Shown here piece after piece: positions 46,306 through 64,000 of a stretch of DNA of 64,000 bases. Source of the stretch: an uncultured Pseudomonadales bacterium. GTDB taxonomy: Bacteria > Patescibacteriota > Microgenomatia > UBA1400 > UBA12028. Made by a program: the position numbers and the translations under genes. Each line of letters begins with the position of its first letter. Position 1 is the stretch's first letter. Location of the stretch: contig CAZDWN010000001.1 of the NCBI GenBank assembly GCA_964509365.1, forward strand, positions 80,143 to 144,142, read 5' to 3'. Under the pieces are notes generated by a model, which saw only the letters and a list, made by a program, of their open reading frames with translations, was not told the DNA's origin and made no database searches.

Positions 46306-47232
46306 TTATAACGCTGTACTGACCTTTACGATATTTTCCATAAGGCTTATCACCGTGACTGGACCGACGCCGCCAGGGACCGGAGTTAAGAATGATGCTT
46401 TTGGTTCGACAGAAAAGTTTTCCACATCAGCTGCTGGGGATCCGACGTCGATGACGACAGCTCCCTCTCCGACCATCTCACCTTTTAGAAGATCTGCCTG
46501 ACCTGCTGCACAGATGATGATCGGAAAATCTTGAGTTTTGGTGATCTCAAATTCTTGCTTGCCGACATTGACCACTGTATGTCCAAGCACTCGCAAGAGG
46601 TGCGTGAGCGGTTTGCCCACGATATCAGATTTTCCGATGACGAGGACGGATTTTTTCATCCACTCTTCATTCGTCGCTCCCAGCGCATTCTTAGCATTCT
46701 GAAGGATCGAGAGCACTGCTTTGACCGTCGCCGGGACCAGAAAACTATCCGTTCGACCCTCGTGTGAGTACACATGCCTACCGGTAGGCATGGCTCGAGT
46801 GCTCAGGATGACATTCAAGTTCTGCTGAGTCAGACAATCAATATCTTTTTGAGGATCGATTGCGGTCGTGAGACTCTCCCACCATTTTGCAAAATCAGTT
46901 GTCGCTCTCTTGTCATTGTATTTTTCCCAGACCGCTTTCGCTGGTTTCTGGATCATGACACCGGTGACTGACGCATTAAATGACAGTTCACGAATATTTT
47001 GGATGAGTTCGCCCTGATCATCCGCTAGCGAGCACACATATGGTTCGTACAGGATCCCGATGCGCTCGGCAGCTTTCTTCTTGAGGCCCGTGTAGAGGAT
47101 ACTTCCTTCGTCCTCTTTGAATGTGACACTGGTGACGCGAATGGTTTTCCCTTTTGCATGCAGGAGATCGACCTCGTGTTTCAACAACAGTTCTTTTTCC
47201 GCTGCAAAAGTTTTCCCATCAAATAAAATCAT
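46306..47232 (-). CDS. folD: bifunctional methylene-THF dehydrogenase / methenyl-THF cyclohydrolase
   Basis: FolD N-terminal pattern DGK..A, YxxxK motif and Rossmann GxSxxxGxP (VIGKSDIVGKP). Confidence 0.8.
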   Translation of the reverse strand: MILFDGKTFAAEKELLLKHEVDLLHAKGKTIRVTSVTFKEDEGSILYTGLKKKAAERIGILYEPYVCSLADDQGELIQNIRELSFNASVTGVMIQKPAKAVWEKYNDKRATTDFAKWWESLTTAIDPQKDIDCLTQQNLNVILSTRAMPTGRHVYSHEGRTDSFLVPATVKAVLSILQNAKNALGATNEEWMKKSVLVIGKSDIVGKPLTHLLRVLGHTVVNVGKQEFEITKTQDFPIIICAAGQADLLKGEMVGEGAVVIDVGSPAADVENFSVEPKASFLTPVPGGVGPVTVISLMENIVKVSTAL

Positions 47233-47299
47233 AGTTTTTTTTCTAACTTTTGGTGCTCGAAGAGTAAACTGATTGCGAGCAGCATTGCCTACTGCACTC

Positions 47300-48208
47300 T
47301 TATTTTAATAATAATTTCAACATTTCTACATCCACCGCTTCTGGCCCCGTCTTGTTTGGCCCCGGCACTTCGAGGATGAGTGGCAAATGCTTCACCATCG
47401 GATGATTCACAAATGCTTTCATCATCTCGATTGGGATCTGCCCTTCCCCAAGATTTGCATGCCTATCTTTGTGTGAAAAATATTCGTCTCGACTATCATT
47501 GACATGTACGACTTTGAGACTATCGACGAGCTGCAGTTGTTCCATCCAATCAAAGATATATTTCTCTCCATCTTGCGGGACGAGTGAATATCCTGCGGCA
47601 AATGCATGACAGCTATCGAGGCACCATCCAAGTCGTTTCCCACCTTGCACCGTGCGCAGGAGCCAGGTAATCTCACGAAGATCGGATCCAATTTTTCCAT
47701 TCATTCCAGCTGCATTTTCGATCAAAAAGATTGCATCGTCAGGAGTGCTTGCGAGCAGATCAGAGATATGTTTGGCGACTTGATCTTGGACTGCCAGCCA
47801 CCCATTTCCAAGATGTGATCCGAGATGGACGACGACACCTGCAGCCTTCATCCCTGCACATGCGTTCAGATCGACGGAGAGACTGACTTTGCTTTTTTCG
47901 ATATGTTCTGGCTTTTCGGCGGCGAGATTCACGAGATATTGCGCATGGATGACAGTCGCTTCCATTCCTTCTTTTTTTGCGTTCTCATTGTATCTGGCGA
48001 TTTTATCCGCAGGGACGTCGGTGGTCGACCAGGATCGTGGACTACTACAGAAGATTTGGATGGCGTTGCAACCGAAGTCTTTGGCGCGTTTGGGAGCGAG
48101 ATCGATGCCGCCGCCTGCGCTCACGTGTGCTCCGACAAGAATAGTTTGTGACATATGCGCAAGTGTATCACACAGATCCGTAGGGGCGGGTCGTGACCCG
48201 CCCTGCAT
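47300..48208 (-). CDS. nfo: endonuclease IV (AP endonuclease family 2)
   Basis: GAHVSAGGG...QIF..SPRSW TIM-barrel signature. Confidence 0.8.
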   Translation of the reverse strand: MQGGSRPAPTDLCDTLAHMSQTILVGAHVSAGGGIDLAPKRAKDFGCNAIQIFCSSPRSWSTTDVPADKIARYNENAKKEGMEATVIHAQYLVNLAAEKPEHIEKSKVSLSVDLNACAGMKAAGVVVHLGSHLGNGWLAVQDQVAKHISDLLASTPDDAIFLIENAAGMNGKIGSDLREITWLLRTVQGGKRLGWCLDSCHAFAAGYSLVPQDGEKYIFDWMEQLQLVDSLKVVHVNDSRDEYFSHKDRHANLGEGQIPIEMMKAFVNHPMVKHLPLILEVPGPNKTGPEAVDVEMLKLLLK

Positions 48209-48210
48209 TT

Positions 48211-49515
48211 TTATGGCGTGGGGAACTTGCTACAGAGCTCTTTCACTTCCGCAGCGATCGCTAGCAAAGATTTATCATCCTGACAACGAGCGGAGAAGTC
48301 TATCATATATTCAGCTCTCATTGGTTTATCTTCAGGCAATTTCTCATTGACTACATGATCCATGACTTTCCTGATCCATTCTGCGATGAGTTTCATTTCT
48401 GCCTCTTTCATCCCCCGTGTCGTGACAGCTGGTGTCCCGAGTCTGACTCCCGATGGATAAAACGGACTTGGATCATTCGGTACGGTATTTCGATTGGTGA
48501 CGATACCTGCAGCGTGCAGTGCGCGAGCGACGAGTGTCCCTTTCCCGACTGAATCAGCGCTAAAGTCCATGATCATCAAATGATTCTCTGTCCCGTCTCC
48601 GACGAGTTTTATTCCTTGGTCCATGAGTGCATTCGCGAGAGTCTTTGCATTTTTTACAATCTGTTGATTGTAGCCTGTGAACTGTGGTCTACTGGCCTCT
48701 TCGAGAGCGATAGCGATCCCTGCCGTGACATTATTATGAGGACCACCCTGCATGCCCGGGATGACTGCTGAATCAATTTTTTTTGCCAGCTCCGGATCTT
48801 TCTTCATGCCTTCATCTGTCACCATGATCATCGCACCGCGAGGACCTCGGAGGGTCTTGTGAGTCGTCGTCATGATCACATGAGCATGCGGCACTGGTGA
48901 TGGGTGTGCGCCTGCGATGATTAGACCTGCGATGTGAGAAATATCAGCGACTAGGTAGGCTCCAACTTCGTCAGCGATTTCCCGAGCCTTTTTCCAGTCG
49001 AGAATAAATGGATATGCAGTTGTACCGAGGATGATCACCTGTGGTCTGTGGTCTGTAGCCTGTCGTCTCATTTCGTCGTAATCAATCCGTGCATCGGCAG
49101 TCAGACCAAACTGCACAGAGCGATAATATTTTCCGGAAAACGTGACGTTTGGGTGTCCGTGCGTGAGATGGCCCCCCATCGAGAGTTTGAGGCCCATGAC
49201 CGTACTGCCAGGCTCAGCCAGCGCAAGAAGGATCTCACTATTTGCAGGACTGCCCGAGTATGGTTGCACATTCGCGTAGGGGACACCAAAAAGCTTTTTT
49301 GCTCGCTCAATAGCCAGGAGTTCGATTTGATCGATAAAATCATTGCCCTCGTAGTATCGTTTTCCAGCATACCCTTCCGAGTATTTGTTCATGAGGACAG
49401 AACTGACTGCTTCCCGGACAGCAGCTGAAGCATAGTTCTCGCTGGGGATGAGCATCAGCGTCTCTTCTTGGCGCGATTCTTCCTTGGCGATGAGTTCAAA
49501 AATTTGATCTGGCAT
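48211..49515 (-). CDS. glyA: serine hydroxymethyltransferase
   Basis: LIPSENY..AV N terminus and PLP-lysine region TTTHKTLRGPRG. Confidence 0.9.
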   Translation of the reverse strand: MPDQIFELIAKEESRQEETLMLIPSENYASAAVREAVSSVLMNKYSEGYAGKRYYEGNDFIDQIELLAIERAKKLFGVPYANVQPYSGSPANSEILLALAEPGSTVMGLKLSMGGHLTHGHPNVTFSGKYYRSVQFGLTADARIDYDEMRRQATDHRPQVIILGTTAYPFILDWKKAREIADEVGAYLVADISHIAGLIIAGAHPSPVPHAHVIMTTTHKTLRGPRGAMIMVTDEGMKKDPELAKKIDSAVIPGMQGGPHNNVTAGIAIALEEASRPQFTGYNQQIVKNAKTLANALMDQGIKLVGDGTENHLMIMDFSADSVGKGTLVARALHAAGIVTNRNTVPNDPSPFYPSGVRLGTPAVTTRGMKEAEMKLIAEWIRKVMDHVVNEKLPEDKPMRAEYMIDFSARCQDDKSLLAIAAEVKELCSKFPTP

Positions 49516-49532
49516 GAAGATAGTTTAGCACG

Positions 49533-50150
49533 GTGTATACTTTTGTCATGAAACTTCCATTGATTAATCCGGACGTAGAAATACTATTGCAAACCACGAT
49601 TCTCCCAGACCTTGAAAAAGGAAGGAAAAATTTTGACCGTCCCCATACGGAAGCAGTAGTTTTTTGGATGAAGGAGCTTCTTGAGAAAATAAACTCTCCA
49701 ACTTGTGATCAGCTTGTATTAATTACCGCTGCCTATGCTCATGACTGGGGATATATTGGGCTTTTTGATGGAATAGATAGTTCGGACATCAATGTAGTCC
49801 ATAAGATGAAGCCACTTCATATGGAGCGAGGTAGCCTTCTTATAAAAATGCTGATTGATGAAAAGCTCAACAAGTATTTCACCAGCGAGCAAGCGGAGCT
49901 TGTTGCCCATCTGGTCTATATGCATGACCGAATAGAAAAATTAGCAACTGAACCAGAGATCTTACTTATGGAAGCTGATACACTGGGAATGTTAGATACT
50001 GACAGAGTAAAGCCCACGTTTTCCAAAGCCGACAACACTGTGTTTATTTCTCGTGAACTACAAGAAAGAAGATTGCCTGTATTTCTTCATCCTGTCGCCA
50101 AAGATCTGGCTAAATCCCTTATGCAGAAGCGAATTGCTTTCTATTCTTGA
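49533..50150 (+). CDS. HD-domain phosphohydrolase
   Basis: H...HD...D pattern (AAYAHDWGY ... MHD). Confidence 0.5.
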   Translation: MYTFVMKLPLINPDVEILLQTTILPDLEKGRKNFDRPHTEAVVFWMKELLEKINSPTCDQLVLITAAYAHDWGYIGLFDGIDSSDINVVHKMKPLHMERGSLLIKMLIDEKLNKYFTSEQAELVAHLVYMHDRIEKLATEPEILLMEADTLGMLDTDRVKPTFSKADNTVFISRELQERRLPVFLHPVAKDLAKSLMQKRIAFYS

Positions 50151-51385
50151 TTGAAGACCTGAGCTCCTGCAACTGAATATGCGTCAAGCCGATTGAACGA
50201 GAACTCAAAATCGGGATCTGCCAAAGCCAGTTCCACAGCGCCCAAAGCAGAAGTAAACAATTTATATCTTTGATCCTGGTTTTCATTTGCATCGAAAAGT
50301 GAGGAGACAAACGCCTTGTAGCCATAGAATAGTGCCATATACTTTCGAATATGCCTATCATGTCGGTCCAAACCATATTTTGTGACAAAATTATCGGCTA
50401 TTTGAGAAAAATCCCCCACAAGTGTTTCTCCTTTGGATTTATTTGCATCTAAAAAGGCCAAGTCTGCGTACGCAAAGACTACATCATAGCCTGCTTCGCC
50501 AAATCCGACTGATGCGGGGTCAATTATCTCAACTCGATCTTGAAGCTTGTCGGTTGAAACAAAAATGTTGGCCGACCAAAGGTCCCCATGAATCGCAGAT
50601 AATCTAGTTCTCGCATCTTTTGAATATCGTTGTGCTAATTCCGACATCCTTTCCTTCAGCATGTCAACTTTGTCTGAGCCAATTCTACCTTCAGAAAACT
50701 GTGGCATGAGTGCTCCAAGTCCATTAAGTCTAGTTGAATCTTCGATCACATGTAGCACTCCATTCTTGTAGAGTTCTCTGGATCTAGCCAAGATAGCCGG
50801 ACCAAGGGGAGATTCGTGAAGGGTTAACATCTTCTCAGTTACTTCTTTGTAGAGTTCGACAATGTCGTCTTTGGAAGTGTTCATCTCATTCATCAATTCA
50901 GCTGACTGAATTGTAGAGAGTCCCAGTTGTCCCAAGAATGTGAGCATTTGCTTGTATTCTTTCGGATCCAAAAGATTTTGAATCGCAAACACCAAGTCCA
51001 AGTTCTTCAGTTGGTTTGGCGTGATGTCAGTTTCGTCAATGCGAGTAACAGTTATTTGGTCAAGTCCAAAGGCACCGTAGGATTTGTTGACCCCACTACG
51101 AGGACGTGAACTATCGATTAAATCCTTCCGTCTGGCAATATCAAGTCCACTCTCATCCTCGTCTCTATCTCGCTCAGTCTTTATGAAAAAAGGATATGTC
51201 GTTCCAGATGTTTCCACCAGAACCTTGAATCCAAAAGAGAATTGGCCTTGGCCGATTTTTTCTACAGATGAAATTCGGACCGGGATATGTATGTCAGTTA
51301 CATCCTTGAGAAGTGGAATAAATATTTGTTGAATTTGCTCTTCAGGCAAAGTCTCTAGTTGACGTTTCCTTTGTTCGGCTGACAT
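50141..51385 (-). CDS. APH/ChoK-like phosphotransferase (kinase of unknown substrate)
   Basis: catalytic loop IHGDLWSANIFV and DxxS/D motif; 414 aa with an N-terminal extension. Confidence 0.55.
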   Translation of the reverse strand: MSAEQRKRQLETLPEEQIQQIFIPLLKDVTDIHIPVRISSVEKIGQGQFSFGFKVLVETSGTTYPFFIKTERDRDEDESGLDIARRKDLIDSSRPRSGVNKSYGAFGLDQITVTRIDETDITPNQLKNLDLVFAIQNLLDPKEYKQMLTFLGQLGLSTIQSAELMNEMNTSKDDIVELYKEVTEKMLTLHESPLGPAILARSRELYKNGVLHVIEDSTRLNGLGALMPQFSEGRIGSDKVDMLKERMSELAQRYSKDARTRLSAIHGDLWSANIFVSTDKLQDRVEIIDPASVGFGEAGYDVVFAYADLAFLDANKSKGETLVGDFSQIADNFVTKYGLDRHDRHIRKYMALFYGYKAFVSSLFDANENQDQRYKLFTSALGAVELALADPDFEFSFNRLDAYSVAGAQVFNQE

Positions 51386-51388
51386 AGA

Positions 51389-52054
51389 TTATCCTTTTAT
51401 CTGAGCAGATATATGAGTGATTATTTTCTTCGCGTCATCGGGATTATTTTCAAAATCAGTGACGAATTCTTCAGTTACTTCAATTACTTTGACGTCTTTC
51501 GAAGTCAATTTTTCATGAAGTGCGGAGAGTCCAAGTTCAAGCTGTCCCAAGTATTCTCGAGTGTAGAATGCAAGTTCGTAATCTCTCCCTCGTTTTTTGA
51601 GTCGTTCCATCAACGTATCCATCGAGTAGCTCAGTTTGACGACATGTGTATTCTTGAACAATCCATCGGTCAATTCGTCATACAGTGTGTGATACAGTCT
51701 CCACTCATCGTCAGTGATATTTCCGACGAGCAGATGACTGTAGGTATACACCCAGCTCATGAGCAATCCACTATCGATGATCGTGATCCCTTGCTTTCGT
51801 TTCCCGAGTTCTGCTCGCAAGATTTTTATTCGCTCAATTGTGAGCCATGTCTCATTGGCAAATGCCCATCGTTTCATATCTGCAAGATATGGTTTTGCGA
51901 ATGGGTCAGAGGTCTGAAAGAGGTCGTCAGCATCGACTGCATGTGCACCAAGTGATTTGACGAGAATTGGCATGAGGGTCGATTTCCCCGATGCCACATT
52001 GCCGATAATTGTAAGAGTTTTTGCAGACATACTTTTAAGATCGTCTCTTTTCAT
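51389..52054 (-). CDS. deoxynucleoside kinase (dCK/dGK family)
   Basis: P-loop IGNVASGKSTL and dNK-type fold; 221 aa. Confidence 0.7.
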   Translation of the reverse strand: MKRDDLKSMSAKTLTIIGNVASGKSTLMPILVKSLGAHAVDADDLFQTSDPFAKPYLADMKRWAFANETWLTIERIKILRAELGKRKQGITIIDSGLLMSWVYTYSHLLVGNITDDEWRLYHTLYDELTDGLFKNTHVVKLSYSMDTLMERLKKRGRDYELAFYTREYLGQLELGLSALHEKLTSKDVKVIEVTEEFVTDFENNPDDAKKIITHISAQIKG

Positions 52055-53270
52055 TCGGTGCGTGTTTAATCTTCATAAATTCGTAGTTCAGTCTATCCCT
52101 ATGAAATGGGATAGTCGTTGTCTCGCCATCGTCAACGTCACGTATCTCAATCTCAAAATTTTTCACTTTCGGATAGAGTGCAAAGACACTTCGAATTGTC
52201 AGTATGATTCGATCATAATACAACTCCCAGAACTTTGCTTTCCACGTGTCAAAGTGCGGGATACTATGTTCACTATGAAGCTTATGCCACTCTTCCGGGA
52301 CACTTGATCTCATTCCGTTTCGCACACTGCTTTCTACTGCAAATCGTTCATCTTTTGCTTTTCCCGGAGTAAAATCAAGTTTCCAGACAAATGTTTCTTT
52401 GTCTTTTCGCACCCCTATCTCCCGTGTTTTCCCAAGCAAATTTACTGCAAGATGAGGATCCATATCGACTGCTTCCTGACCACCCGCCTTTTCACTCACT
52501 CTGTGTCTCCCAATATCTGTCTTGTCAGCGATAATAAGTGCGAGTGCTTCTGGACCGAAATGCGTTACCATTTTCTCAATTATTTCTGTTTCACTTAGCT
52601 CTCGCTTTCCCGAACTTTCAGACTCGATTTCTCGAGAAAAACTTTCAATCAAAGATGTTGCAATCGGCTCATTGTGAAGTTGCATTGCTCGACGCACAAT
52701 TCGCCAGTCTCGAGCTTGCTTCTGTCGTTTTTTGCTTTCAATCGGAAGATTTGCGTCAGGTTTAATTTGCTCCACTACAGTAGACAAAATGTATGGCGAG
52801 ACCAGTGAGTGAAGTTTCCTACTAAGAATATTTCCAAGATCATGTCCTCGAGATGCTAAGACCGCTCGTCGAATGGTTTGTTTCTTCTCACCAGCATCTT
52901 TGAGAAGTGAGATTACATTCTTCGTCACTTTGTCTATGTGCTTGCTATCATGTCGATTGAACCCATGATTATAAATTTTGTCGAGGGAACCATTGGCTAG
53001 TCCGTACGGTGCGTCAAGACAATTTGATAGAAAAGAGTCCAATTTACGCACTCCACCTTTGTACACATCAAAATCAGATCCACAAAAATCACTCCATTGA
53101 TTCGTCTCAGTTAAGACAAATTCAATGAATGCTTGTGGGCACGCAGCATCCATGAAAAATTGTCGGGCCGGCACGCTCTCTTCTGGCTTTCCAGAATGAT
53201 TGACGAATACTCCATCTTCATTTCGAATAAGCGATTTTGCCAATCGGAATTGTTCAATTGAGACCGACAT
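52035..53270 (-). CDS. HD-domain hydrolase, possibly dNTP triphosphohydrolase or 5'-nucleotidase-like
   Basis: HD motif (SRGHDLGN) and conserved His; overlaps the dNK start by 20 nt. Confidence 0.45.
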   Translation of the reverse strand: MSVSIEQFRLAKSLIRNEDGVFVNHSGKPEESVPARQFFMDAACPQAFIEFVLTETNQWSDFCGSDFDVYKGGVRKLDSFLSNCLDAPYGLANGSLDKIYNHGFNRHDSKHIDKVTKNVISLLKDAGEKKQTIRRAVLASRGHDLGNILSRKLHSLVSPYILSTVVEQIKPDANLPIESKKRQKQARDWRIVRRAMQLHNEPIATSLIESFSREIESESSGKRELSETEIIEKMVTHFGPEALALIIADKTDIGRHRVSEKAGGQEAVDMDPHLAVNLLGKTREIGVRKDKETFVWKLDFTPGKAKDERFAVESSVRNGMRSSVPEEWHKLHSEHSIPHFDTWKAKFWELYYDRIILTIRSVFALYPKVKNFEIEIRDVDDGETTTIPFHRDRLNYEFMKIKHAPNEKRRS

Positions 53271-54356: not shown

Positions 54357-54998
54357 ATGACTTTTTCCATTGAAAATTCTCAGCTCAGTCCGCAAACAAT
54401 TATCCAAAAGTGCATTGACTTTACCGCAAATCGTCCTGGACTCAAGAAAAATAATTCCAAGGCAAAACTACGAGAACTTGCTGGCCGAGAATTTGATGAG
54501 TTGATCGAAGCACTAGAACGGCCAAAAATGGACGATGACCAATGGATTGTCGAAGTCGCTGAGGAAATTCCAGATGTCTTGATTTTCATTCTTCAGCATT
54601 GGCTCGATGAAAAGAAATCGCACACGCAGATTGCAGAGTTATTGTTTCAAGCGGAGAGCAAAGCGTCGTTGCTTCCTCACTATACGCAGAAAGTCTATGG
54701 ATCAAAGATGCAAGAGCTACGACCAGAACTCGCAAAAAAAACATCGCTTGATGACTCCGTTAGCTTGCGAGCGCTGACTCTTTGTTTTGCGTTGAGTCAT
54801 TCGCTTGATTTTGACTTGTATGAGCTGACTGACCTCAAATCAGATCACAATGACAAACGCTATCAGCCTGAGCTGTATGAAGAGGGGTGTGACTATAAAG
54901 AGTCTCGCAAGATCACGAAAGAATATGCCAAACGAGTAGTGCCAAAGGAGGTACATTTGTATCCGCAAATCCTCGAGCTTCGTCGCAATCGAGATTAG
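54357..54998 (+). CDS. MazG-like all-alpha NTP pyrophosphohydrolase
   Basis: EFDELIEALE...EVAEEIPDVLIFILQ matches the MazG EExxE/D metal-site pattern. Confidence 0.45.
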   Translation: MTFSIENSQLSPQTIIQKCIDFTANRPGLKKNNSKAKLRELAGREFDELIEALERPKMDDDQWIVEVAEEIPDVLIFILQHWLDEKKSHTQIAELLFQAESKASLLPHYTQKVYGSKMQELRPELAKKTSLDDSVSLRALTLCFALSHSLDFDLYELTDLKSDHNDKRYQPELYEEGCDYKESRKITKEYAKRVVPKEVHLYPQILELRRNRD

Positions 54999-55263: not shown

Positions 55264-56061
55264 TTATACACGAGCAAAATTCAAGTTTACTTGCTGATAC
55301 GCCAAAGCACCGCTAGCAGTTTTGTGGTCTTGCGAGGTTTCATGAGAGAGAAACTGCTGAAAAAACACATGTGGCAATACACCACCGACGATAAGAAGTT
55401 CCGCCACTTTCGCTGATACGCTCTCGCCATCGCTTTTTTCTCCACGGTTCCTGACGCGGATATTAGTCCCAAATTTCGAGACCAGGGACGCCAAATTGAC
55501 AATGCTATTGTCAAAAACTGATCGCTCCAGCGACGTTTGCGCATCTACAGTTTGTGCATCAAGTCCCATTGGAAAATCTGCAAAACATTCTAGGACTGCT
55601 CCTCGTTGAAACTGTTTGTCAGAGCTTTGCCAGACGATTCCGACATCCCACTTGACGTAAAACGTCCCATTGCAGTAGAGCTGCCGCGCTATCACCTGGA
55701 CTTCGGCCATCTTTTCCCTTATCAATTGCTGATCATCAGTTTCTTGGCGTATCGCCTTCTTCATTTCCTTAGAGTCCGTTTCAGTTTGCCCTGCCTTCCA
55801 TGTCCAAGTGGCCACATCCGATCCCACGATGAGTGTGGGATGCTCTAAATCTTGATTCTGAAGTATTGCTTCGGTTTTTTCAAATGCTACCATACCAGTG
55901 TCATTCGACATGGATTCTTCGACTCCATATGCCTTCTCTGGGTTGATTGCATCGATGAAAAACGCGTACCGATCATATTGATTGCGTGCAGCCGCGACTC
56001 GAGATTTGGAGCCGGTGGCGATGATGAGTTCTCTGTATGTCCAATTTTTGGCTTCACTCAT
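55264..56061 (-). CDS. Maf-like nucleotide pyrophosphatase (Maf/Ham1 superfamily), extended
   Basis: LIIATGSKSR ~ Maf LILASGSPRR; LIVGSDV ~ IGADT; weak. Confidence 0.4.
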   Translation of the reverse strand: MSEAKNWTYRELIIATGSKSRVAAARNQYDRYAFFIDAINPEKAYGVEESMSNDTGMVAFEKTEAILQNQDLEHPTLIVGSDVATWTWKAGQTETDSKEMKKAIRQETDDQQLIREKMAEVQVIARQLYCNGTFYVKWDVGIVWQSSDKQFQRGAVLECFADFPMGLDAQTVDAQTSLERSVFDNSIVNLASLVSKFGTNIRVRNRGEKSDGESVSAKVAELLIVGGVLPHVFFQQFLSHETSQDHKTASGALAYQQVNLNFARV

Positions 56062-56468: not shown

Positions 56469-57314
56469 TTAAATTCTATGGGCATTGATGCTGTCCCGCA
56501 ATGAGCGGGCCTCCGTGCTAGGGGTACTCGAGAAGATAATTTGACGTGAACTACTGATGAGCATGCCAGCATGATCGCTATTTTTCCCGGCAATCACCGT
56601 TGCTTCCAGATCTCCACCCTGCGCTCCGATTCCAGGGATCAGTAGCGGCATGTCACCGACAATTGAGCGGATTGCCGCCAATTCTGCTGGATAGGTTGCT
56701 CCAGCGACCAGCATGCAGTTGTCATTTGCATTCCACTTCTGGGAAACATTTTCCGCAACAATTTCCCAAAGCTGTTTCTCTTTTTTTTGAATTTTGATTT
56801 TTACATTTTGAATTTCTCCACTTCCCGGATTTGAAGTCTTACACAGGATGATGCTCACTTTGTCTTTTCGATCTAAGAAAGGCTGGAGCGCTTCTTGTCC
56901 GAGGTATGGATGCAAAGTGATCGCATCAAATCCAAGTTCATCAAAGATTGCAGTGACGTACCCAGCGTTTGTATTTCCGATATCACCGCGTTTGGCGTCG
57001 GCGATCGTAAAGATGTCTGGATGATGGGTATGGAGATAGTCCATCGTCATGGCGAGTTCCGTCCATCCCTGCGCCCCTCTTGCTTCATAAAACGCAAAGT
57101 TAGGCTTGTAGGAAGACACATATTCATGCGTTTGCTCGATGATCCATTTATTGAACTCATACTGAGGTGTATGAGATTTCTGAAACTCCGGAGGGATTTT
57201 TGTGATATCACTATCAAGACCCACGCATAAGAGTGAGCTGACTTTGAGCTCACGTTTTCTTAGTTTCTCATGAGCCGTCATATTTCCTCTCCAGATAAGT
57301 AGCTGTCTCGTCAC
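56469..57314 (-). CDS. pyrF: orotidine 5'-phosphate decarboxylase (type 2)
   Basis: LCVGLDSD signature of type-2 ODCase; 281 aa. Confidence 0.75.
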   Translation of the reverse strand: MTRQLLIWRGNMTAHEKLRKRELKVSSLLCVGLDSDITKIPPEFQKSHTPQYEFNKWIIEQTHEYVSSYKPNFAFYEARGAQGWTELAMTMDYLHTHHPDIFTIADAKRGDIGNTNAGYVTAIFDELGFDAITLHPYLGQEALQPFLDRKDKVSIILCKTSNPGSGEIQNVKIKIQKKEKQLWEIVAENVSQKWNANDNCMLVAGATYPAELAAIRSIVGDMPLLIPGIGAQGGDLEATVIAGKNSDHAGMLISSSRQIIFSSTPSTEARSLRDSINAHRI

Positions 57315-57579
57315 TCACAATCTCCTGCAAAGTGCTGCGAAGTGTACTCAGTAGCCCATGTGGATATTTGCTGATGTGTTCAACAAATTCTTGGTCGTAC
57401 AGAATTCCTGATTCGAGAATATTTTCGTACACTGCGGCATGAGCTTGTATAACCGATGGAAGAGTTTGAAGAGCCAAAAAATAATCAGCAGAAGTTTGAT
57501 TGAGATCAAGTTCCGTGAGCTGATTAATATACGCTTCAGCAGCTTTTAGATCAGGGCTTAGTTCTGTTAAGACACTCAT
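57268..57579 (-). CDS. hypothetical protein between pyrE and pyrF
   Basis: start set at the Met behind an aaaggaa SD; overlaps both neighbours, so operonic. Confidence 0.4.
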   Translation of the reverse strand: MSVLTELSPDLKAAEAYINQLTELDLNQTSADYFLALQTLPSVIQAHAAVYENILESGILYDQEFVEHISKYPHGLLSTLRSTLQEIVSDETATYLERKYDGS

Positions 57580-58223
57580 ATATTTCCTTTCGTTCCCCAC
57601 GAATGTGGATTTTTCATCCAGTCTTGTACCATCTTCACTTCCTCCTTAGTGATCTTTTTCATTTTGATTGCTTCTCTGAAAATATGTGCAAATGTAGTCA
57701 GTGTATGCAACCGCACGCCCGAGTTCGCAAATGCTTCATTCGCTTCCGTAAACTCATAACTCGTAATGCTCAAACAATCGGTGACTATTGCACCTGCAGC
57801 ACGAAGAGACTGGACTGCCGTCAGACTTGAGCTCCCTGTCGTTACGTGGTCCTCGATGAGCAGTACTTTCTTTCCGACGACATCTCCTCCTTCAACCATT
57901 TTTTTTGTTCCATGATCTTTGACTGCTTTGCGTACAAAGACCGAGGGGCGTTTGAGAACAAATCCAAGTGCCGCGCTATGCGGTATTCCTGCCGTTTCCA
58001 CCCCAGAGAGTACATCAAAACTGACGAGGCCATCTTCGATGAGTTGCTGAAATCCCTCAAATATTTTTTGCCACCTCGATGGATAAAAAGGCAACTTTCG
58101 GTTATCAACGTACACTGGAGAGAGCATCCCTGTCTTAAACGTAATTGGATTGTTTGGTGAAAAACCTACTGCATTGATCTCAAGTAGTGCTTTGGCAATA
58201 TTTTCTTGCGTGGTCATATCCAT
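57576..58223 (-). CDS. pyrE: orotate phosphoribosyltransferase
   Basis: FKTGMLSPVYVDNR and PRTase loop VLLIEDHVTTGSS. Confidence 0.8.
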   Translation of the reverse strand: MDMTTQENIAKALLEINAVGFSPNNPITFKTGMLSPVYVDNRKLPFYPSRWQKIFEGFQQLIEDGLVSFDVLSGVETAGIPHSAALGFVLKRPSVFVRKAVKDHGTKKMVEGGDVVGKKVLLIEDHVTTGSSSLTAVQSLRAAGAIVTDCLSITSYEFTEANEAFANSGVRLHTLTTFAHIFREAIKMKKITKEEVKMVQDWMKNPHSWGTKGNI

Positions 58224-58231: not shown

Positions 58232-58858
58232 TTAATTTGTACCAAAGTAGCGGTCTCCGTAGTCCCCTAGCCCTGGGACGATATATTTTTTAGCATTGAG
58301 ATGACTGTCGACTGCGGCTGTGAAGATCGCGACTTGCGGGAACTCCTCGTGGATAGCGTTGATCCCTTCAGGCGCGGCGATGACGCAGACGACACGCATC
58401 TCTTTCAATTTTTCTTTAGAGACGCGCCGCAGCAGATGCAACAGTGATCCCCCAGTTGCGAGCATCGGATCGGTGACGATGACGACGCTGTGGCTGGCAA
58501 GCTTAGGGAGTTTCCAGTAGTACTCACTGGCCACTGCCGTTTTCTCGTCCCGTGCCAGTCCGACAAATCCGATTTTTGACTTTGGTAGGAGGTCCATGGC
58601 GCCAAATAGCATCGCGATTCCCGATCGCAATACTGGGATGACGACGATCTCGTCGGCGAGCTTCTTTGCAGTGACAGTTTCAAGCGGAGTCTCTATGCTG
58701 ACGTCCTTAAATGACAGTCCGCGGATTGCTTCAGCAAACAAGAGTCTACAGAGGCGATCGGAGTGCCGCCGGAACTTATCCACATCCGTCTGTTTATCTC
58801 GCAGATGCGTGAGTGAGTCTTGGATAAATGGATGATCGATGATAAAGACATTTTTCAT
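58232..58858 (-). CDS. upp: uracil phosphoribosyltransferase
   Basis: IIDHPFIQDSLTHLRDKQT N terminus and PRPP loop; 208 aa. Confidence 0.85.
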   Translation of the reverse strand: MKNVFIIDHPFIQDSLTHLRDKQTDVDKFRRHSDRLCRLLFAEAIRGLSFKDVSIETPLETVTAKKLADEIVVIPVLRSGIAMLFGAMDLLPKSKIGFVGLARDEKTAVASEYYWKLPKLASHSVVIVTDPMLATGGSLLHLLRRVSKEKLKEMRVVCVIAAPEGINAIHEEFPQVAIFTAAVDSHLNAKKYIVPGLGDYGDRYFGTN

Positions 58859-59263: not shown

Positions 59264-59269
59264 ATTTTT

Positions 59270-59304
59270 TTTGCCGCAAAAAAAATCTCCCGCCATGGCG
59301 GGAG
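59270..59304 (-). terminator. intrinsic terminator ctcccgcc-atg-ggcgggag plus T8 (minus strand)
   Basis: 8-bp GC stem; terminates the 59416-59721 transcript directly before the next start. Confidence 0.55.
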
Positions 59305-59415
59305 GTGAATACTAGTCATCCAAGCGAGGCTTGGTGATGGTGATACTGAAAATGGTCAAAAAAAATGTAGTGGTGGGCACTAAAAATATAGACTACTCTT
59401 CGTTGGGGAGGTAAA

Positions 59416-59721
59416 TCAAGCGGCAAATCGATGTCTCATGACATTTGAGACGATAGAACTAAAAAAAGCCAAAGCTGGCTTGTTCATAAATGTCGCCTCT
59501 TTGATCCATGAATAGTCGTGATATATATCAGTAAGTTCTTTTTCTCCGGCATTTTCATCGTCTTTTTGGTTGGCGTTGTACAATTTTATGAAGGCACGAA
59601 CAAAAGCATTTTGTACAGTTGTATCAGTGAGTTTGAACATTTCAAAAAAATCGAGCACTGTCGGTCGCAACACCACTTCTTGAGTGACAGCAAGTGCCTC
59701 ATCATGATTCATTAGATCCAT
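59416..59721 (-). CDS. hypothetical protein
   Basis: 101-aa ORF. Confidence 0.4.
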   Translation of the reverse strand: MDLMNHDEALAVTQEVVLRPTVLDFFEMFKLTDTTVQNAFVRAFIKLYNANQKDDENAGEKELTDIYHDYSWIKEATFMNKPALAFFSSIVSNVMRHRFAA

Positions 59722-59724
59722 TTC

Positions 59725-60372
59725 CTACACCTCCAACTTTTCTTTTACTTTTGCCCAGATTTGCTGTTCGACAGTCTCCATATCAGTGTTTGCGTCGATG
59801 GTGACCCAGCGATGATGGTCATTTGCGTCTGCGAGTGTCTTGTACGCCGCACGGACCTGATCATGGAATGAGAGATTTTCCATTTCCATGCGATTGCTTC
59901 CTCCAGCTTGCGCTTGTCTTTTGAGTCCGGTGCTCGTATCGACATCGAGGAAAAAAGTGAGATCTGGGTACGTATCTTTCGTAGAGAGTTTATTGAGCTC
60001 TTCGATCTTGTCGATCCCAAATTGTCTGACGATCCCTTGATAGACCACTGAAGAGTCACGAGTTCGATCCATGAGGACGATTTTTTGAGCTTCGAGACTT
60101 GGGAGCACCAGTTCTCGGTACACTTGGGCACGGGCAGCCTGGAAGAGTAGGACTTCGGCGGTATATGCGATGCCGATATTTTTTGCAGATAAGACGACTT
60201 CGCGGATTTGTTCGGAGATCGCGGTCCCCCCTGGTTCGCGCACGACGACGACATCAAAACCTTCCTTGGTAAGATGGTCGCGCAGGCGCACAATCTGCGT
60301 CGACTTCCCCCCGCCTTCGCCACCTTCAAATGAGATTAAGAAACCTTTTTGCATATGAACAACATACCACAT
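59725..60372 (-). CDS. tmk: thymidylate kinase
   Basis: FEGGEGGGKSTQ P-loop and REPGGT motif. Confidence 0.8.
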   Translation of the reverse strand: MWYVVHMQKGFLISFEGGEGGGKSTQIVRLRDHLTKEGFDVVVVREPGGTAISEQIREVVLSAKNIGIAYTAEVLLFQAARAQVYRELVLPSLEAQKIVLMDRTRDSSVVYQGIVRQFGIDKIEELNKLSTKDTYPDLTFFLDVDTSTGLKRQAQAGGSNRMEMENLSFHDQVRAAYKTLADANDHHRWVTIDANTDMETVEQQIWAKVKEKLEV

Positions 60373-60440
60373 TTACTTCGTTTTGTTGTCATCCTGAGCA
60401 CTCGAATGTACTCACTCGAGGGTCGAATGGATAGTTTTTT

Positions 60441-60725
60441 TTATTTGCCTCCAAATTGAGCTTTCGATTGAATTTGCATCCGTTCGTGGACCGATTTATT
60501 GATAAAAGAATCCTTTGGAAGACTGGCAGTACTTTGAGGTGCTTGGACCGATGAGCGGATATCTTTCATCTCTTTTGCAGCGTAAGTGCTTGCTTGCTGG
60601 GTGAAACTCTCCTGGCTATTGTTCTTGATTGCGTAGGGAGCGTTATCTTGCGGTTGCGTGCTATCAGCCAATTTGATTTTATCTTGGAGTGATTTACGGA
60701 ATTGCCCAGGAGTAAAACGAGACAT
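60441..60725 (-). CDS. hypothetical protein
   Basis: 94-aa ORF. Confidence 0.3.
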   Translation of the reverse strand: MSRFTPGQFRKSLQDKIKLADSTQPQDNAPYAIKNNSQESFTQQASTYAAKEMKDIRSSVQAPQSTASLPKDSFINKSVHERMQIQSKAQFGGK

Positions 60726-60729
60726 AGAT

Positions 60730-61068
60730 TTATGCCTTCACTTCCCTTGGTTGGAGGCTTAGGCCCCATGACGTTGTCTGTATCGCGGCATTGTCATTTA
60801 TGCGAAGAACTGTCAGTTTGTCTGTGAGTCTAGGAGATGCCGCTCTTTTTATCGAATTTTGGGAAATAAGTAGGCCAGCCCATTCCACCGCTTGGAACTC
60901 AGGTACAGTCGAGATTTTAGATAATTCAAGAATGAGGCAATATGCATTTGCCCGTAGCACTTGAGCCGGTTCCAAATCTTGACAATGGCTCTCGACCATT
61001 CTCAGCCGAAATACGGTTTCAATATTATTTATCTCTGATATATCCATTTCTTGCACAGGCATATACAT
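60730..61068 (-). CDS. hypothetical protein
   Basis: 112-aa ORF. Confidence 0.3.
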   Translation of the reverse strand: MYMPVQEMDISEINNIETVFRLRMVESHCQDLEPAQVLRANAYCLILELSKISTVPEFQAVEWAGLLISQNSIKRAASPRLTDKLTVLRINDNAAIQTTSWGLSLQPREVKA

Positions 61069-61127
61069 CTCCGCTTTAATATGGCCAAAGTATCACAAAA
61101 AATGTGGGAAAACACAAGTGGCCTTGC

Positions 61128-62720
61128 TCACGCAGGATCTTGTTCGTAGTGGGTGCCGGTTTTGATGGATTCCTCGGCTTTCTGAAGTTCCAAACCGATA
61201 TACATGAGGTGACCGGGGATCGTGATGTAGTTCCAGTCAGTGATTTGCCAGGCTACTTCCTGAGCAGTGCGGCCTTCAAACATTTTGAGGGCAGGTCCTC
61301 CATTCGGTTCATAGATCGTAGCCCGAATGAGTTTCCCTCCCTCTTTTGGCATTTTCTTCAGCATGCGCTCGACCGCCATCGGTACAGACTCGTTTTCGTA
61401 GCGCTTCGACCAGTACGGAAAGCTCTGAGCATCAGACTCATTGATCACTTCGACGATGGCATTGCCTCGACTATCAAAATCAAAATGCACTTGCGGCGTG
61501 TATCCAAGTTCTTTCTCATAGTGTTTCATGAGCAGCTCATCGACGAGCGCAAAGTCATCAGCGTACATGTGAGCACTATGGGTGATCATGGTGAGCGGTC
61601 CCATCGCCATCCCGGCGCTGTCGGCAATATCTTTTTGAAGTTTGCGCAGTGCAAATGTATTGCGAGGCCAACCATGCACCATATCTTGACTGCGAAAGTG
61701 GCATGTAAAGAAAAATTTATCGTCCTGGACAGATCCTAAGACCATCGTGAGACAAGGAGTGTCGCCTTTGTTCGCTTCGGCCCAGTCACGTTTGGGATCG
61801 ATTGTGATCGCCACCATTTTTTTGCTATCGGGACGAAGTTGAATGAGTTTCTTTATCTCGTCGACTTGATTGACACCGAGATCTTCGCGCAGTCGTTTGC
61901 CATAATTGTAAGCGACTCCAGGGATAGACCTGGCAGTCATCATCTCAGCGTAGTAGGATTCGAGTTCAAATCGTGCGAATGGAAGATATTCGGGAAAATA
62001 AATTTCGTCGGGATCCTCATCAGTGATGACGGCAGTGAGATTCAAGATTTCTTTGAGACTATTATCTTTTGAGTATCTTGTGTGTTTCGGTCTGCCATAC
62101 TTTGATATCTCATTAAGTAGTTTGAGCCAGGTCATTGCCACTTTTGGCGAGCCGACGCGAAACCCAGATTGCTCACTTGGTAGGAGTTGGATCTTTGGCT
62201 CACTTCGTGGGAATTCTCGCGAACGTTTGGCAAATGGCTCGATTGTTTTTTCAGAGAGCTCTTTTGCTTTTGTGACCATCTCGACAGCAGTCTTCCCTCG
62301 CATATCCACGACCGCCACCATTTGCCGAAACTCTTGCAACATGTCTTCTGGGAGCATGTCTTCGATCTCTCCTCGTGCACCGACGATGCGTCGATTTTCG
62401 TCCACTCCGTTTTCAATAAATTTTTTGAGAGACTGCCCCGACTGGCTCATCTCTGCACCCCAGATCAAGATGACACGGATATGCGGATTCGCAAAGATAT
62501 TGCGGATCATCGCATTGATGCCTTGTGCGCTGTAGAGATTGCCGATGGTATTGTAGTCGACGTCCTTTAAAAGTCCTTCAACTGCCTGACGCTCTGTCCA
62601 GAGGCAGCAGATCGCCAAATGATGCTCAGGGTTTTTCACTTTGAGAACATCTTTATAAAATAGCGGCCAGTGGGACAAATCGATAGGCATCGCTGGTGAA
62701 CATAGCAAACCCAAAATCAA
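61128..62720 (-). CDS. thymidylate-synthase-fold enzyme with ~165-aa N-terminal and ~100-aa C-terminal extensions
   Basis: aligns by eye to ThyA: DSKKMVAITIDPKRDW...PC(L) ~ DSRRIIVSAWNP...PCH; RSQDMVHGWPRN ~ RSADMFLGVPFN; GPLTMITHSAHMY ~ GEFIHTLGDAHIY. Confidence 0.65.
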   Translation of the reverse strand: MILGLLCSPAMPIDLSHWPLFYKDVLKVKNPEHHLAICCLWTERQAVEGLLKDVDYNTIGNLYSAQGINAMIRNIFANPHIRVILIWGAEMSQSGQSLKKFIENGVDENRRIVGARGEIEDMLPEDMLQEFRQMVAVVDMRGKTAVEMVTKAKELSEKTIEPFAKRSREFPRSEPKIQLLPSEQSGFRVGSPKVAMTWLKLLNEISKYGRPKHTRYSKDNSLKEILNLTAVITDEDPDEIYFPEYLPFARFELESYYAEMMTARSIPGVAYNYGKRLREDLGVNQVDEIKKLIQLRPDSKKMVAITIDPKRDWAEANKGDTPCLTMVLGSVQDDKFFFTCHFRSQDMVHGWPRNTFALRKLQKDIADSAGMAMGPLTMITHSAHMYADDFALVDELLMKHYEKELGYTPQVHFDFDSRGNAIVEVINESDAQSFPYWSKRYENESVPMAVERMLKKMPKEGGKLIRATIYEPNGGPALKMFEGRTAQEVAWQITDWNYITIPGHLMYIGLELQKAEESIKTGTHYEQDPA

Positions 62721-62738
62721 CTTGCAAGAAGAAGTGCT

Positions 62739-63731
62739 TTACACCGCGCTGTAGGTGACGCCTCGTGTAGTTCCATTTTTCACTATCAATTTTTTTTTGA
62801 GCAAATCATTGACGTCAAAGCTCAGCGTACGACGAGGAATAGTGGGAAAACGCCTGGCGATCAAATCGAGAGAGCAAAACGGATGATCTTTGATGATCTC
62901 AAGGATCTCGTGACGTCGCGGGAGGAGGTTTAAAGGCTTCCCTTCTTTCTCAGGAAGTTTGGTATCGCGGATCTCATCTAAGACTTGTTCAAATCCCCAG
63001 ATGATCGAGTCCAACAAGAATGATTCAAAGTCTTCAATCGTTTTATTGCTTTGCTCCAGATAAAAATAATATTTATCTCGCTGCCGCTCAAAGTATTGGT
63101 CGATTGGGATGACGACATTTTTTGGGGCGATCTCGAATCTCGCGAGAAGAAGATGTAAGAGCACTCGCCCGACCCGACCATTCCCATCGATGAATGGATG
63201 GATTTTTTCAAAAAACAGATGCAGTGGAGCCACTGACAGTAATGCATTTTTTCCTGTATCAATCTTATTAAAAGTAGTTAGAAATGCATCAAGCATCGCA
63301 TCCATCGTCTCGCGATCTGGGGTTAAATACACGGCGTTTCCAAAGGCATCAAAAATAGCAGTTTGCTCTCGCCTGAGCTTCCCAGCATCACTCGATACCG
63401 TATCGAGGATGATTGTGTGGATTTCTTGGAGTGTGATGAGTGAGAGCTTTTCTGTCCATCGAGGCAACAGAGTCAATGTCCTCATAACATTCGCTATTTC
63501 TTTTTTGGATTTTGAATTTTGAATTTTGGAATTTTCGAACTCCTCAAGAGTGAGCGCGTTTCCTTCGATGCGCGCCGAGAACAAGGACGATTTGAGATAT
63601 TGCGTATGAAAGACGCGTTGCGCGAGCTCCGGTGGGATCGGCAGATGCTTCAACGTTTCTGAGAGGACGAAAATCCTTGAGATTTTGGAATCGATTTCTG
63701 GTGTAGACTCGAGACTAGTTATTTCCAGCAT
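62739..63731 (-). CDS. Fic-family protein (AMPylator-type)
   Basis: HPFIDGNGRVGR Fic motif. Confidence 0.8.
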   Translation of the reverse strand: MLEITSLESTPEIDSKISRIFVLSETLKHLPIPPELAQRVFHTQYLKSSLFSARIEGNALTLEEFENSKIQNSKSKKEIANVMRTLTLLPRWTEKLSLITLQEIHTIILDTVSSDAGKLRREQTAIFDAFGNAVYLTPDRETMDAMLDAFLTTFNKIDTGKNALLSVAPLHLFFEKIHPFIDGNGRVGRVLLHLLLARFEIAPKNVVIPIDQYFERQRDKYYFYLEQSNKTIEDFESFLLDSIIWGFEQVLDEIRDTKLPEKEGKPLNLLPRRHEILEIIKDHPFCSLDLIARRFPTIPRRTLSFDVNDLLKKKLIVKNGTTRGVTYSAV

Positions 63732-63833
63732 TGCCTAATACTGCCAGATACTGCCTAATCTTGCAAGATGCTGCGTATTTATTGCCAAATATCCCCTTTT
63801 TGAAGATCCAAAAACTCGTTTATCGGATGTATC

Positions 63834-64000
63834 TTATTTCAAGTTCAGTACTATTCCAAAATTTTCCTCGAATCGTGTTTGAAACTCATCGACCGAAAAA
63901 GAATGTTCTTGACCACCAAAGTTTTCTACTGCGTATGCAGACGAAATAGCTCCCATCTTGCCGCAGATTTCTAAAGGAAGTCCTGCTAAGTATCCACGGA
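63834..64000 (-). CDS. partial pfkB-family sugar/nucleoside kinase (C terminus only, runs off the window)
   Basis: minus-strand frame gives ...GYLAGLPLEICGKMGAISSAYAVENFGGQEHS...LNLK then TAA at 63834-63836, a typical ribokinase-family C terminus. Confidence 0.45.
   Translation of the reverse strand, partial: RGYLAGLPLEICGKMGAISSAYAVENFGGQEHSFSVDEFQTRFEENFGIVLNLK

Follow-up and report, generated by a model that had tools for sequence, protein, structure and literature searches.

Bacteria of the Candidate Phyla Radiation (CPR, or Patescibacteria) and archaea of the DPANN group are thought to depend on their hosts for nucleotides. The CPR do not have complete nucleotide biosynthesis, although glyA, folD and folA are commonly kept (PMC11974145; PMC12455944) and a functional FolA is present in some of them (PMC11974145). 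Among enzymes with the ThyA fold, specificity has been related to a few active-site residues: Asn177 goes with uracil and not cytosine as the substrate base, and an acidic residue at position 143 is found with hydroxymethylating rather than methylating enzymes (PMC13326640). In MtrA, cobalamin binding depends on His84 as ligand of the cobalt, on Glu54 as the partner of this residue and on a GAIPYxEN segment (PMC4915002). We analyse here a stretch of 64 kb of bacterial DNA, referred to as the window, whose last ~18 kb (positions 46306-64000, the island) group genes for pyrimidine, thymidylate and one-carbon metabolism, including one for a protein fusing a ThyA-fold core to two other domains. 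With a probability of about 0.7, this region is a vertically inherited supercluster of such genes that has been reduced in the present lineage, and the fusion protein is most likely the thymidylate synthase of the cell.

The window is a segment of a bacterial chromosome, with dnaX, a class II aminoacyl-tRNA synthetase gene, secD/secF, rseP, rpsB, tsf, frr, ybeY and prs, and is also rich in large proteins without a Pfam match. Its proteins were searched against Pfam, NCBIfam, PHROGs, PADLOC and the Protein Data Bank (PDB), homologs were collected through metagenome scans, and gene order was compared with that of ten related loci, designated by L numbers, through tblastn searches with the proteins of the island; the closest long relative, the Woesebacteria contig JBDTWD010000002.1, corresponds to loci L002 and L007. 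ThyA, FolA and PyrH of E. coli and Maf of B. subtilis served as reference sequences, and the residue mapping on ThyA was cross-checked against PDB alignments, including that of S. aureus ThyA. Because the best homologs of the window proteins come from metagenome-assembled genomes of Candidatus Woesebacteria, Pacebacteria, Cerribacteria and other Patescibacteria, the source organism is a Microgenomates-type CPR bacterium.

An initial annotation, made from the letters of the sequence, had described this region as a cluster of nucleotide genes lying nearly all on one strand, which the domain searches bore out in large part, the strand being the minus one. Genes with a role in nucleotide or one-carbon metabolism or in repair make up 10-13 of the 23 in the island and 3 of the roughly 45 elsewhere in the window (Fisher p 6e-4 to 1e-5). 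In the island, four groups of genes resemble transcription units, namely pfkB-fic-thyA(fusion)-unk94-tmk, upp-pyrE-pyrF, HD2-dNK-kinase and glyA-nfo-folD, where unk94 encodes a conserved 94-aa protein, HD2 a HD-superfamily protein and dNK a kinase of the deoxynucleoside kinase family. Terminator-like hairpins on the minus strand at 59304-59287 and 56097-56082, the latter downstream of pyrF, are consistent with separate thyA..tmk and upp-pyrE-pyrF units.

The core of this arrangement, made of the fusion gene, unk94 and tmk, recurs in the relatives, as do glyA, nfo and folD. The tmk gene is found downstream of the fusion gene in L002, L004, L005, L006 and L014, and in L005 and L006, whose fusions are 72-75% identical to that of the window, it is followed by pyrH, glyA, nfo and folD. 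The order glyA-nfo-folD is kept in L005, L006, L007 and L010, and unk94 stands just upstream of tmk in four genomes (the window, L002 12696-12977, L004 9608-9868 and L009 958-1212). The fic gene adjoins the fusion gene in three genomes, on differing sides (the window, L001 8927-9919 and L002 11675-12664). The conservation of order is most extensive on the Woesebacteria contig, whose two loci are colinear with the whole island of the window over more than 30 kb. The Woesebacteria block is larger in gene content: pyrB, pyrC and pyrD separate upp from pyrE, a PfkB kinase gene lies between pyrE and pyrF, a thymidine kinase gene (tdk) follows pyrF, and genes for a phosphoribosyltransferase and GMP synthase (guaA) stand ahead of glyA. 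In L009, pyrC and pyrD occupy the same place. According to tblastn, including searches with the PyrB, PyrC, PyrD, thymidine kinase and GuaA of the relative, these additional genes are all absent from the 64 kb of the window, where the gap between upp and pyrE is 8 bp. The statement of the initial annotation that the window holds no de novo purine or pyrimidine gene beyond pyrE and pyrF was valid for every open reading frame (ORF) scanned.

The same annotation had interpreted the cluster as a host-dependent scavenging island. The CPR affiliation and the reduced gene content are in keeping with this proposal, but the block is not salvage-specific, since its Woesebacteria counterpart carries pyrB/pyrC/pyrD, tdk, a second phosphoribosyltransferase gene and guaA. 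Rather than a dedicated salvage island, the simplest reading of the compared sequences would be a conserved supercluster from which this lineage has lost the de novo genes. As the block of the relative still holds pyrB, pyrC and pyrD, the lineage would have deleted these de novo pyrimidine steps and kept the last two. FolD is unusually divergent: it lies far under every NCBIfam cut-off for this enzyme (85-127 bits against 330-540), and the FolD proteins of the relatives are only 33-54% identical to each other while their serine hydroxymethyltransferases (SHMT) are 49-74% identical. Two further features of the relatives may be mentioned here. In L009, an amidinotransferase/ADI-like gene and a gene for a 543-aa argininosuccinate-synthase-like/MGS-like fusion (2013-4443) stand at the position that pyrB has in the Woesebacteria block, before pyrC and pyrD, and may provide another way of reaching the carbamoyl-aspartate step. 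In L010, a folylpolyglutamate synthase (FolC-like) gene lies between glyA and nfo (10563-11888), a sign that such organisms retain and polyglutamylate folates.

The fusion protein comprises an MtrA-like Rossmann domain (residues ~1-160), a minimal ThyA core of archaeal type (~175-395) and a DUF4346, or 'PterinBD', domain (~405-520); a TTG start of the ORF at 62720 corresponds to an upstream extension that is unused by homologs. The core is above the PF00303 cut-off and its best model is TIGR03283 (thy_syn_methano; 126.6 bits, residues 192-391). The three domains are found together in over 477 database proteins, at 59-93% identity. An exhaustive HMMER search with the core alone retrieved 476 clusters at E<1e-10, nearly all of 450-530 aa with the core at 160-400, and almost every one of the 150 nearest representatives of these clusters has the three-domain layout. 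The named members belong to Patescibacteria (CPR), a KSB1 bacterium and Nanobdellota/Nanoarchaeota archaea (DPANN), and are all labelled 'thymidylate synthase'. The window protein is 84% identical to its Woesebacteria ortholog, compared with 45-74% for the neighbouring genes. A full-text search of the literature returned no description of an architecture joining MtrA-like, ThyA and DUF4346 domains. By structural comparison, the fusion scores 23.0 with the 5-hydroxy-dCMP synthase 9iqc, 21.3 with MilA, 17-19 with canonical ThyA, and 17.2 with T4 dCMP hydroxymethylase as well as with MtrA, and none of the viral predicted structures covers more of it than the ThyA core.

The catalytic residues of the core, C313 (in a Pro-Cys motif), R333, S334, D336, N344, H374 and Y376, are those of E. 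coli ThyA (Cys146, Arg166, Ser167, Asp169, Asn177, His207 and Tyr209), and their equivalents are conserved in 135-150 of the 150 family representatives. An Asp at position 169 designates an enzyme other than a 5-hydroxylase according to the rules of PMC13326640. Distant members of the family adjoin tmk and dUTPase/DCD genes on a KSB1 contig, or a dCMP deaminase gene in Nanobdellota. Considering these conserved catalytic residues, the neighbouring genes of the thymidine monophosphate (dTMP) pathway and the thymidine kinase encoded by the Woesebacteria relative, the fusion is most likely, as judged from sequence, the thymidylate synthase of its cell. Since the minimal core is devoid of the canonical folate-contact loop, it is probably the DUF4346 and MtrA-like domains that bind the pterin or bring it into position, and they would in this way supply the cofactor binding missing from the core. 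Both flanking domains contain residues that are invariant family-wide (W31, G50, Y53, G57, R63, N64, D/E80, D406, G409, H494 and Q517). A role of the C-terminal tail similar to that of the ThyA C-terminus, based on strict conservation, was also considered and rejected: its YEQDPA motif is specific to the clade, and only the near-terminal Gln is family-wide.

The other distinctive element of the block is the module of HD2, dNK and kinase genes, which overlap or abut each other. The same order recurs in L007 (Woesebacteria), in L010 and probably on a JGI contig. The first gene in L010 encodes a distant member of the HD2 family, missed by phmmer and recovered by the family profile (1.6e-13), and a gene for a 484-aa protein with no Pfam match, a putative equivalent of HD2, stands before dNK on the JGI contig. 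In L009, dNK is followed not by the kinase gene but by one for a PNP/UDP-type nucleoside phosphorylase. The small HD-domain gene HD205 is found with the module in the window, has an ortholog at the same position in L007 (69% identity) and is present in two copies in L010. These families are rare, with 15 clusters of relatives for HD2 and 7 for the third protein, an ELK/APH-fold kinase, among 5.8 billion proteins.

The family assignments of this module made in the initial annotation were upheld, through motifs and fold in the case of the second HD hydrolase and the APH-like kinase. HD2 presents the H...HD...D metal-binding residues and the all-alpha HD fold. The dNK-like kinase, which is 88% identical to its counterpart in L007, 75% in L009 and 51% in L010, contains a P-loop (GNVASGKS) and a LID segment (RLKKRGRDYE). 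The Pfam scores of the ELK kinase are just under the cut-offs (APH 20.4 against 23.2, Fructosamin_kin 20.6 against 22.4), and two members of its family carry precomputed PF01636 matches. Its HGDLWSAN segment, at residue 266, has the form of a HxDxxxxN loop and aligns to the catalytic loop of MtnK, with a metal-binding Asp further downstream; H266, D268, N273 and D289 are invariant in the 7 sequences. The best matches on PDB profiles are 2olc (MtnK) and 2pyw, with E=0.04-0.09, which makes this kinase marginally closest to 5-methylthioribose (MTR) kinase, the MTRK match being also under its cut-off. The likeliest function of the module would be to process and re-phosphorylate scavenged (deoxy)nucleosides or their sugars.

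Several observations weigh against the combined reading of a reduced supercluster served by a thymidylate synthase of this type. The data cover 64 kb, and pyrB, pyrC and pyrD could lie elsewhere in the genome. Comparison with E. coli PyrH revealed no pyrH in the window, so that the step from UMP to UDP is there unaccounted for. The fusion scores under the equivalog cut-offs (126.6 against 174.55 for TIGR03283 and 30.6 against 108.35 for TIGR03284); it has Asp310 at the position of Leu143 and a deletion of the loop bearing Trp80/Trp83, that is, at shield and folate contacts; no solved structure matches its C-terminal DUF4346 domain; and the roles given to its flanking domains are inferred only. 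With E. coli FolA as the reference, the window and the related loci are without a dihydrofolate reductase (DHFR) gene, and we know of no enzyme activity for any member of the fusion family. As for the module, the E/D-R-S motif by which the dNK family contacts the deoxyribose is not found in the dNK-like kinase, which has IIDSG at the strand end and no [DE]R[SH] anywhere. Beside the missing pyrH, it can be observed that the rpsB-tsf-frr region (35129-38756), with tsf at 37465-37917 and frr at 35129-35680, both on the minus strand, is devoid of the usual pyrH. Between tsf and frr, the plus strand carries two ORFs (281 and 279 aa) without Pfam match, the first of which resembles a multi-pass membrane protein. 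The pyrH gene is also absent from the block of the Woesebacteria relative.

A function of the fusion outside canonical thymidylate synthesis appears unlikely, and two proposals of this kind can be weighed. It could be a thymidylate synthase with a new mechanism, in which the flanking domains provide a corrinoid or pterin methyl(ene) relay, or regenerate tetrahydrofolate (THF) in cis following the logic of the DHFR-thymidylate synthase (DHFR-TS) fusions. The near-universal layout among the 150 closest representatives and the invariant residues of both flanking domains are in favour of this proposal, as is the presence of DUF4346 at the end of another pterin enzyme, the archaeal protein TIGR00284, which resembles dihydropteroate synthase; the lack of folA from the neighbourhoods compared also fits. 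The N-terminal domain is homologous to MtrA and has the same Rossmann-like fold, by sequence and structure comparison, but His84 and Glu54 fall in insertions that are missing from the fusion family, and the GAIPYxEN meander is replaced by GEIE, so that MtrA-style binding of cobalamin is unlikely. For the same reason, a cobalamin methyl relay combining an MtrA-like carrier, a methyl-pterin site in DUF4346 and Cys-activated dUMP as acceptor was downgraded. A nucleotide-binding glycine motif is not evident, and some CPR do have a functional FolA (PMC11974145); altogether a new mechanism seems rather improbable. The other proposal, for which the initial annotation had left room, is a modification of DNA bases: the ThyA-like enzyme would be a dUMP hydroxymethylase giving 5-hydroxymethyl-dUMP to Tmk, while the HD proteins, the MazG-like protein and the kinases would exclude or recycle dTTP or process the modified base. 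The loss of the hydrophobic Trp80/Trp83 loop agrees with it, and the Asp310/Asn344/Asp336 pattern is that of gp29 of SPO1, an experimentally known dUMP hydroxymethylase, and fits the rule of PMC13326640. Asp310 is present in the window protein and in all of its 27 aligned close homologs (59-84% identical), as are Asn344 and Asp336, and is invariant in this clade of 28 sequences. Across the 150 family representatives, however, the equivalent of Leu143 is unconstrained (N37, S26, G18, D17, H17, R9...; polar or small in ~145 of 150) and, as it varies in this manner, is not a conserved catalytic determinant in the family. Moreover, the fusion family is chromosomal, very widespread in CPR, KSB1 and DPANN, and located beside ordinary dTMP-pathway genes, a thymidine kinase is encoded in the block of a close relative, and the library search found no PHROG or phage hypermodification protein. 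The HD2 and kinase families are rarer than the fusion by orders of magnitude, and consequently cannot be its obligate partners. The residue pattern is the only positive indication, and base modification by this block is very unlikely. A broader version, in which the fusion would either hydroxymethylate dUMP or make dTMP through another cofactor route, with the rare HD2-dNK-ELK operon handling non-standard nucleosides, is unlikely.

A different origin of the block was also weighed, as a horizontally acquired or mobile island, derived from a phage or defensive, for instance manipulating the nucleotide pool with Fic, HD proteins and kinases. The Fic protein does match the SoFic defence model of PADLOC (1.6e-44), HD2 and the kinase belong to very rare families, a gene for a TrwB/TraG-like ATPase lies just upstream (43396-45543), and the stretch from HD205 to HD2 has a GC content of 0.41-0.43, compared with 0.49-0.50 for glyA. 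This dip is nevertheless no larger than others in the window, the HD and kinase genes have no PADLOC or PHROG match, no integrase, repeat or tRNA marks a boundary, and gene order is colinear with the relatives over more than 30 kb, all of which makes a mobile island highly improbable, and of the explanations considered the least probable. In particular, a defence system was discarded as PADLOC matched Fic alone, a phage origin as the PHROGs gave generic kinase matches only, and borders made of repeats, tRNA or Rfam elements were not found; the 64-kb window contains no tRNA gene and no Rfam element at all. Regarding the upstream ATPase itself, it is of the type IV coupling protein kind, is followed by a 245-aa protein without family match, and could be related to DNA uptake or transfer.

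On the preferred reading of a reduced supercluster, the products of the block can be placed in a common scheme. SHMT would transfer a one-carbon unit from serine to give 5,10-methylene-THF, FolD would interconvert the one-carbon forms of THF, and the three-domain enzyme, its pterin cofactor being bound or positioned by the DUF4346 and MtrA-like domains, would methylate dUMP to dTMP through the conserved Cys313 nucleophile, leaving Tmk to make dTDP. Scavenged uracil, through Upp, and orotate, through PyrE and PyrF, would be converted to UMP with the phosphoribosyl pyrophosphate (PRPP) supplied by Prs; after the deletion of the de novo pyrimidine steps, the retained PyrE and PyrF would still be usable for external orotate. 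The PfkB and dNK-family kinases may re-phosphorylate scavenged (deoxy)nucleosides, and HD205 and HD2 may hydrolyse nucleotide phosphoesters, thereby feeding or balancing that pool. The ELK-fold kinase, most like anomeric sugar kinases such as MTR kinase, would transfer phosphate to a hydroxyl group on a sugar or on a molecule resembling a nucleoside, and Nfo would cut abasic sites. The pathway outlined in the initial annotation, from SHMT and FolD to the ThyA-like enzyme and Tmk, with salvage by Upp, PyrE, dNK and PfkB and repair by Nfo, is consistent with the families and with the genes neighbouring distant homologs of the fusion.

The coordinates of the individual genes are given in Table 1. 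The assignments of folD, nfo, glyA, the small HD gene, dNK, pyrF, pyrE, upp, tmk, the ThyA-fold fusion and fic proposed initially were all confirmed by domain searches, PyrF, PyrE, Upp and Tmk each being above the NCBIfam equivalog cut-off, and rdgB and nth were indeed found at 16.6-17.9 kb. The partial pfkB gene was likewise retained through its ortholog in L003. The MazG-like assignment has in its favour a sub-threshold PF03819 match, and the Maf-like one was abandoned: its protein has no library or PDB match, and a shuffle-controlled pairwise comparison with B. subtilis Maf gave z=1.0. The sanitation of nucleotides attributed to MazG and Maf depended on these family calls, which the searches did not support. 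The initial list of nucleotide genes of the window was also incomplete, the genes for PRPP synthetase and for a HIT-family nucleotide hydrolase having been overlooked.

Table 1. Coordinates of the genes of the island and of nucleotide-related and repair genes found elsewhere in the window
Feature	Position	Strand	Evidence and remarks
HIT-family nucleotide hydrolase	3497-3844		Further nucleotide-metabolism gene in the window
PRPP synthetase (Prs)	7004-7918	-	Pribosyltran_N, Pribosyl_synth and Pribosyltran matches; outside the island
RdgB/Ham1	16582-17172	-	Domain search; remote from the island
Endonuclease III (Nth)	17285-17914	+	Domain search; remote from the island
Divergent FolD-like methylene-THF dehydrogenase/cyclohydrolase	46306-47232	-	PF00763 and PF02882 above cut-off; closes the glyA-nfo-folD unit
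Endonuclease IV (Nfo), AP endonuclease	47300-48208	-	TIGR00587 199 bits (cut-off 129.65); between glyA and folD
SHMT (GlyA)	48211-49515	-	PF00464 3.7e-146; NF000586 530 bits (cut-off 335)
HD205, small HD-domain phosphohydrolase	49533-50150	+	PF01966 24.1 bits (cut-off 22); convergent with the kinase operon
ELK/APH-fold small-molecule kinase	50141-51385	-	Third gene of the HD2-dNK-kinase operon; HGDLWSAN motif
dNK-family P-loop kinase	51389-52054	-	PF01712 77.4 bits (cut-off 27); 20-nt overlap between its start and the HD2 end
HD2, 411-aa HD-superfamily phosphohydrolase/phosphodiesterase	52035-53270	-	Opens the operon; family small and uncharacterised
203-aa protein with one hydrophobic segment	53649-54260	-	No family match in Pfam, NCBIfam, PHROGs or PADLOC; 59% identity with the ORF ahead of HD2 in L009
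213-aa orphan, possibly a MazG-type all-alpha nucleoside triphosphate pyrophosphatase (weak)	54357-54998	+	PF03819 E=0.03, 15 bits (cut-off 22), over residues 38-83, containing ExxE...ExxD; nothing relevant by PDB phmmer; relatives absent from metagenome scans and related loci
265-aa orphan	55264-56061	-	No family assigned; no match in Pfam (even E<=10), NCBIfam, PHROGs, PADLOC or PDB; no relatives in metagenome scans or related loci
Orotidine-5'-phosphate decarboxylase (PyrF)	56469-57314	-	TIGR02127 223 bits (cut-off 110.6); true start likely the ATG at 57281, where the ortholog alignment begins
Orotate phosphoribosyltransferase (PyrE)	57576-58223	-	TIGR00336 114.4 bits (cut-off 106.8)
Uracil phosphoribosyltransferase (Upp)	58232-58858	-	TIGR01091 235 bits (cut-off 208); 8 bp from pyrE
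dTMP kinase (Tmk)	59725-60372	-	TIGR00041 169 bits (cut-off 83)
unk94, conserved 94-aa Gln/Ser-rich protein	60441-60725	-	Directly upstream of tmk; sole family match a weak VC2046, under cut-off
Three-domain ThyA-like fusion, 520 aa	61128-62690	-	MtrA-like domain, minimal ThyA core and DUF4346
Fic-domain protein	62739-63731	-	PF02661; catalytic motif HPFIDGNGRVGR intact; N-terminal inhibitory SARIEG (SxxxEG)
Partial PfkB-family (nucleoside/sugar) kinase, C-terminal 54 codons	63834-64000	-	Truncated by the window end; 54-aa fragment without Pfam match alone, 53% identical to the C-terminus of the L003 ORF upstream of the ThyA fusion (PF00294 124 bits, signature DPTGAGDA)

Two other features of the window were observed outside the island. 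A protein with a prokaryotic SLOG/LSDAT (TRPM-type) domain is encoded beside rpsB (38830-39987), SLOG domains being known to bind nucleotide-derived ligands. Positions 19829-33869 contain a series of very large ORFs (1243, 835, 465 and 812 aa) that have either no Pfam match or a sub-threshold one; such very large unmatched ORFs are typical of surface or unknown proteins of CPR.

The block documents a datable step of genome reduction, as the de novo pyrimidine genes present in a relative are here cleanly absent between upp and pyrE. The enzyme apparently used for thymidylate, the indispensable DNA-specific step, moreover belongs to a large family for which no biochemistry was found in the literature. 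If it is a plain thymidylate synthase, it would show a minimal ThyA core outsourcing the binding of its cofactor; if it is not, it would bear on DNA chemistry or on folate economy across much of microbial diversity, and should it be a hydroxymethylase, the DNA of some CPR, and perhaps of DPANN, would contain 5-hydroxymethyluracil or a derivative. The HD2-dNK-kinase genes form a small operon that is a candidate for new nucleoside-salvage activities.

Compared with the known ThyA-fold enzymes, the core of the fusion resembles the archaeal short thymidylate synthase (TIGR03283) by its reduced length, the lack of the long insertions of bacterial ThyA and the same catalytic residues. Unlike the archaeal enzyme, it sits between MtrA-like and DUF4346 domains, and its host encodes enzymes of folate (SHMT, FolD) and not of methanopterin. 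In the bifunctional DHFR-TS of protozoa and plants (e.g. PDB 8dae), the thymidylate synthase follows the DHFR, whereas the extra domains of the fusion are unrelated to DHFR and placed on both sides of the core, in the order N-domain, thymidylate synthase, C-domain. The dUMP hydroxymethylase gp29 of SPO1 (L011) has the same pattern of Asp143, Asn177 and Asp169 equivalents, but it has a long unrelated C-terminal extension and neither MtrA nor DUF4346 domains, while the fusion is cellular, chromosomal and family-wide in its layout. The ThyA-fold hydroxymethylases and hydroxylases MilA and 9iqc, which give the top structural scores, also include the best PDB sequence match (MilA, 1.3e-7). With MtrA (PDB 5laa; PMC4915002), the likeness is limited to the homologous fold of the N-domain, the fusion being without His84, Glu54, GAIPYxEN, the membrane anchor and the other Mtr subunits.

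At the scale of the pathway, the published descriptions of nucleotide and folate reduction in CPR (PMC11974145; PMC12455944) report the same retained functions of glyA, folD and thyA type and the presence of salvage enzymes; neither the present block nor its three-domain enzyme nor the HD2-dNK-kinase operon is described there. A reduced nucleotide metabolism in CPR with retained glyA, folD and thyA functions is therefore already known, and the gene families of the block are ordinary. The conserved supercluster with its visible deletion of pyrB/pyrC/pyrD, the very widespread and uncharacterised three-domain ThyA-like enzyme, whose active-site shell is non-canonical, and the rare HD/kinase operon go beyond what is known.

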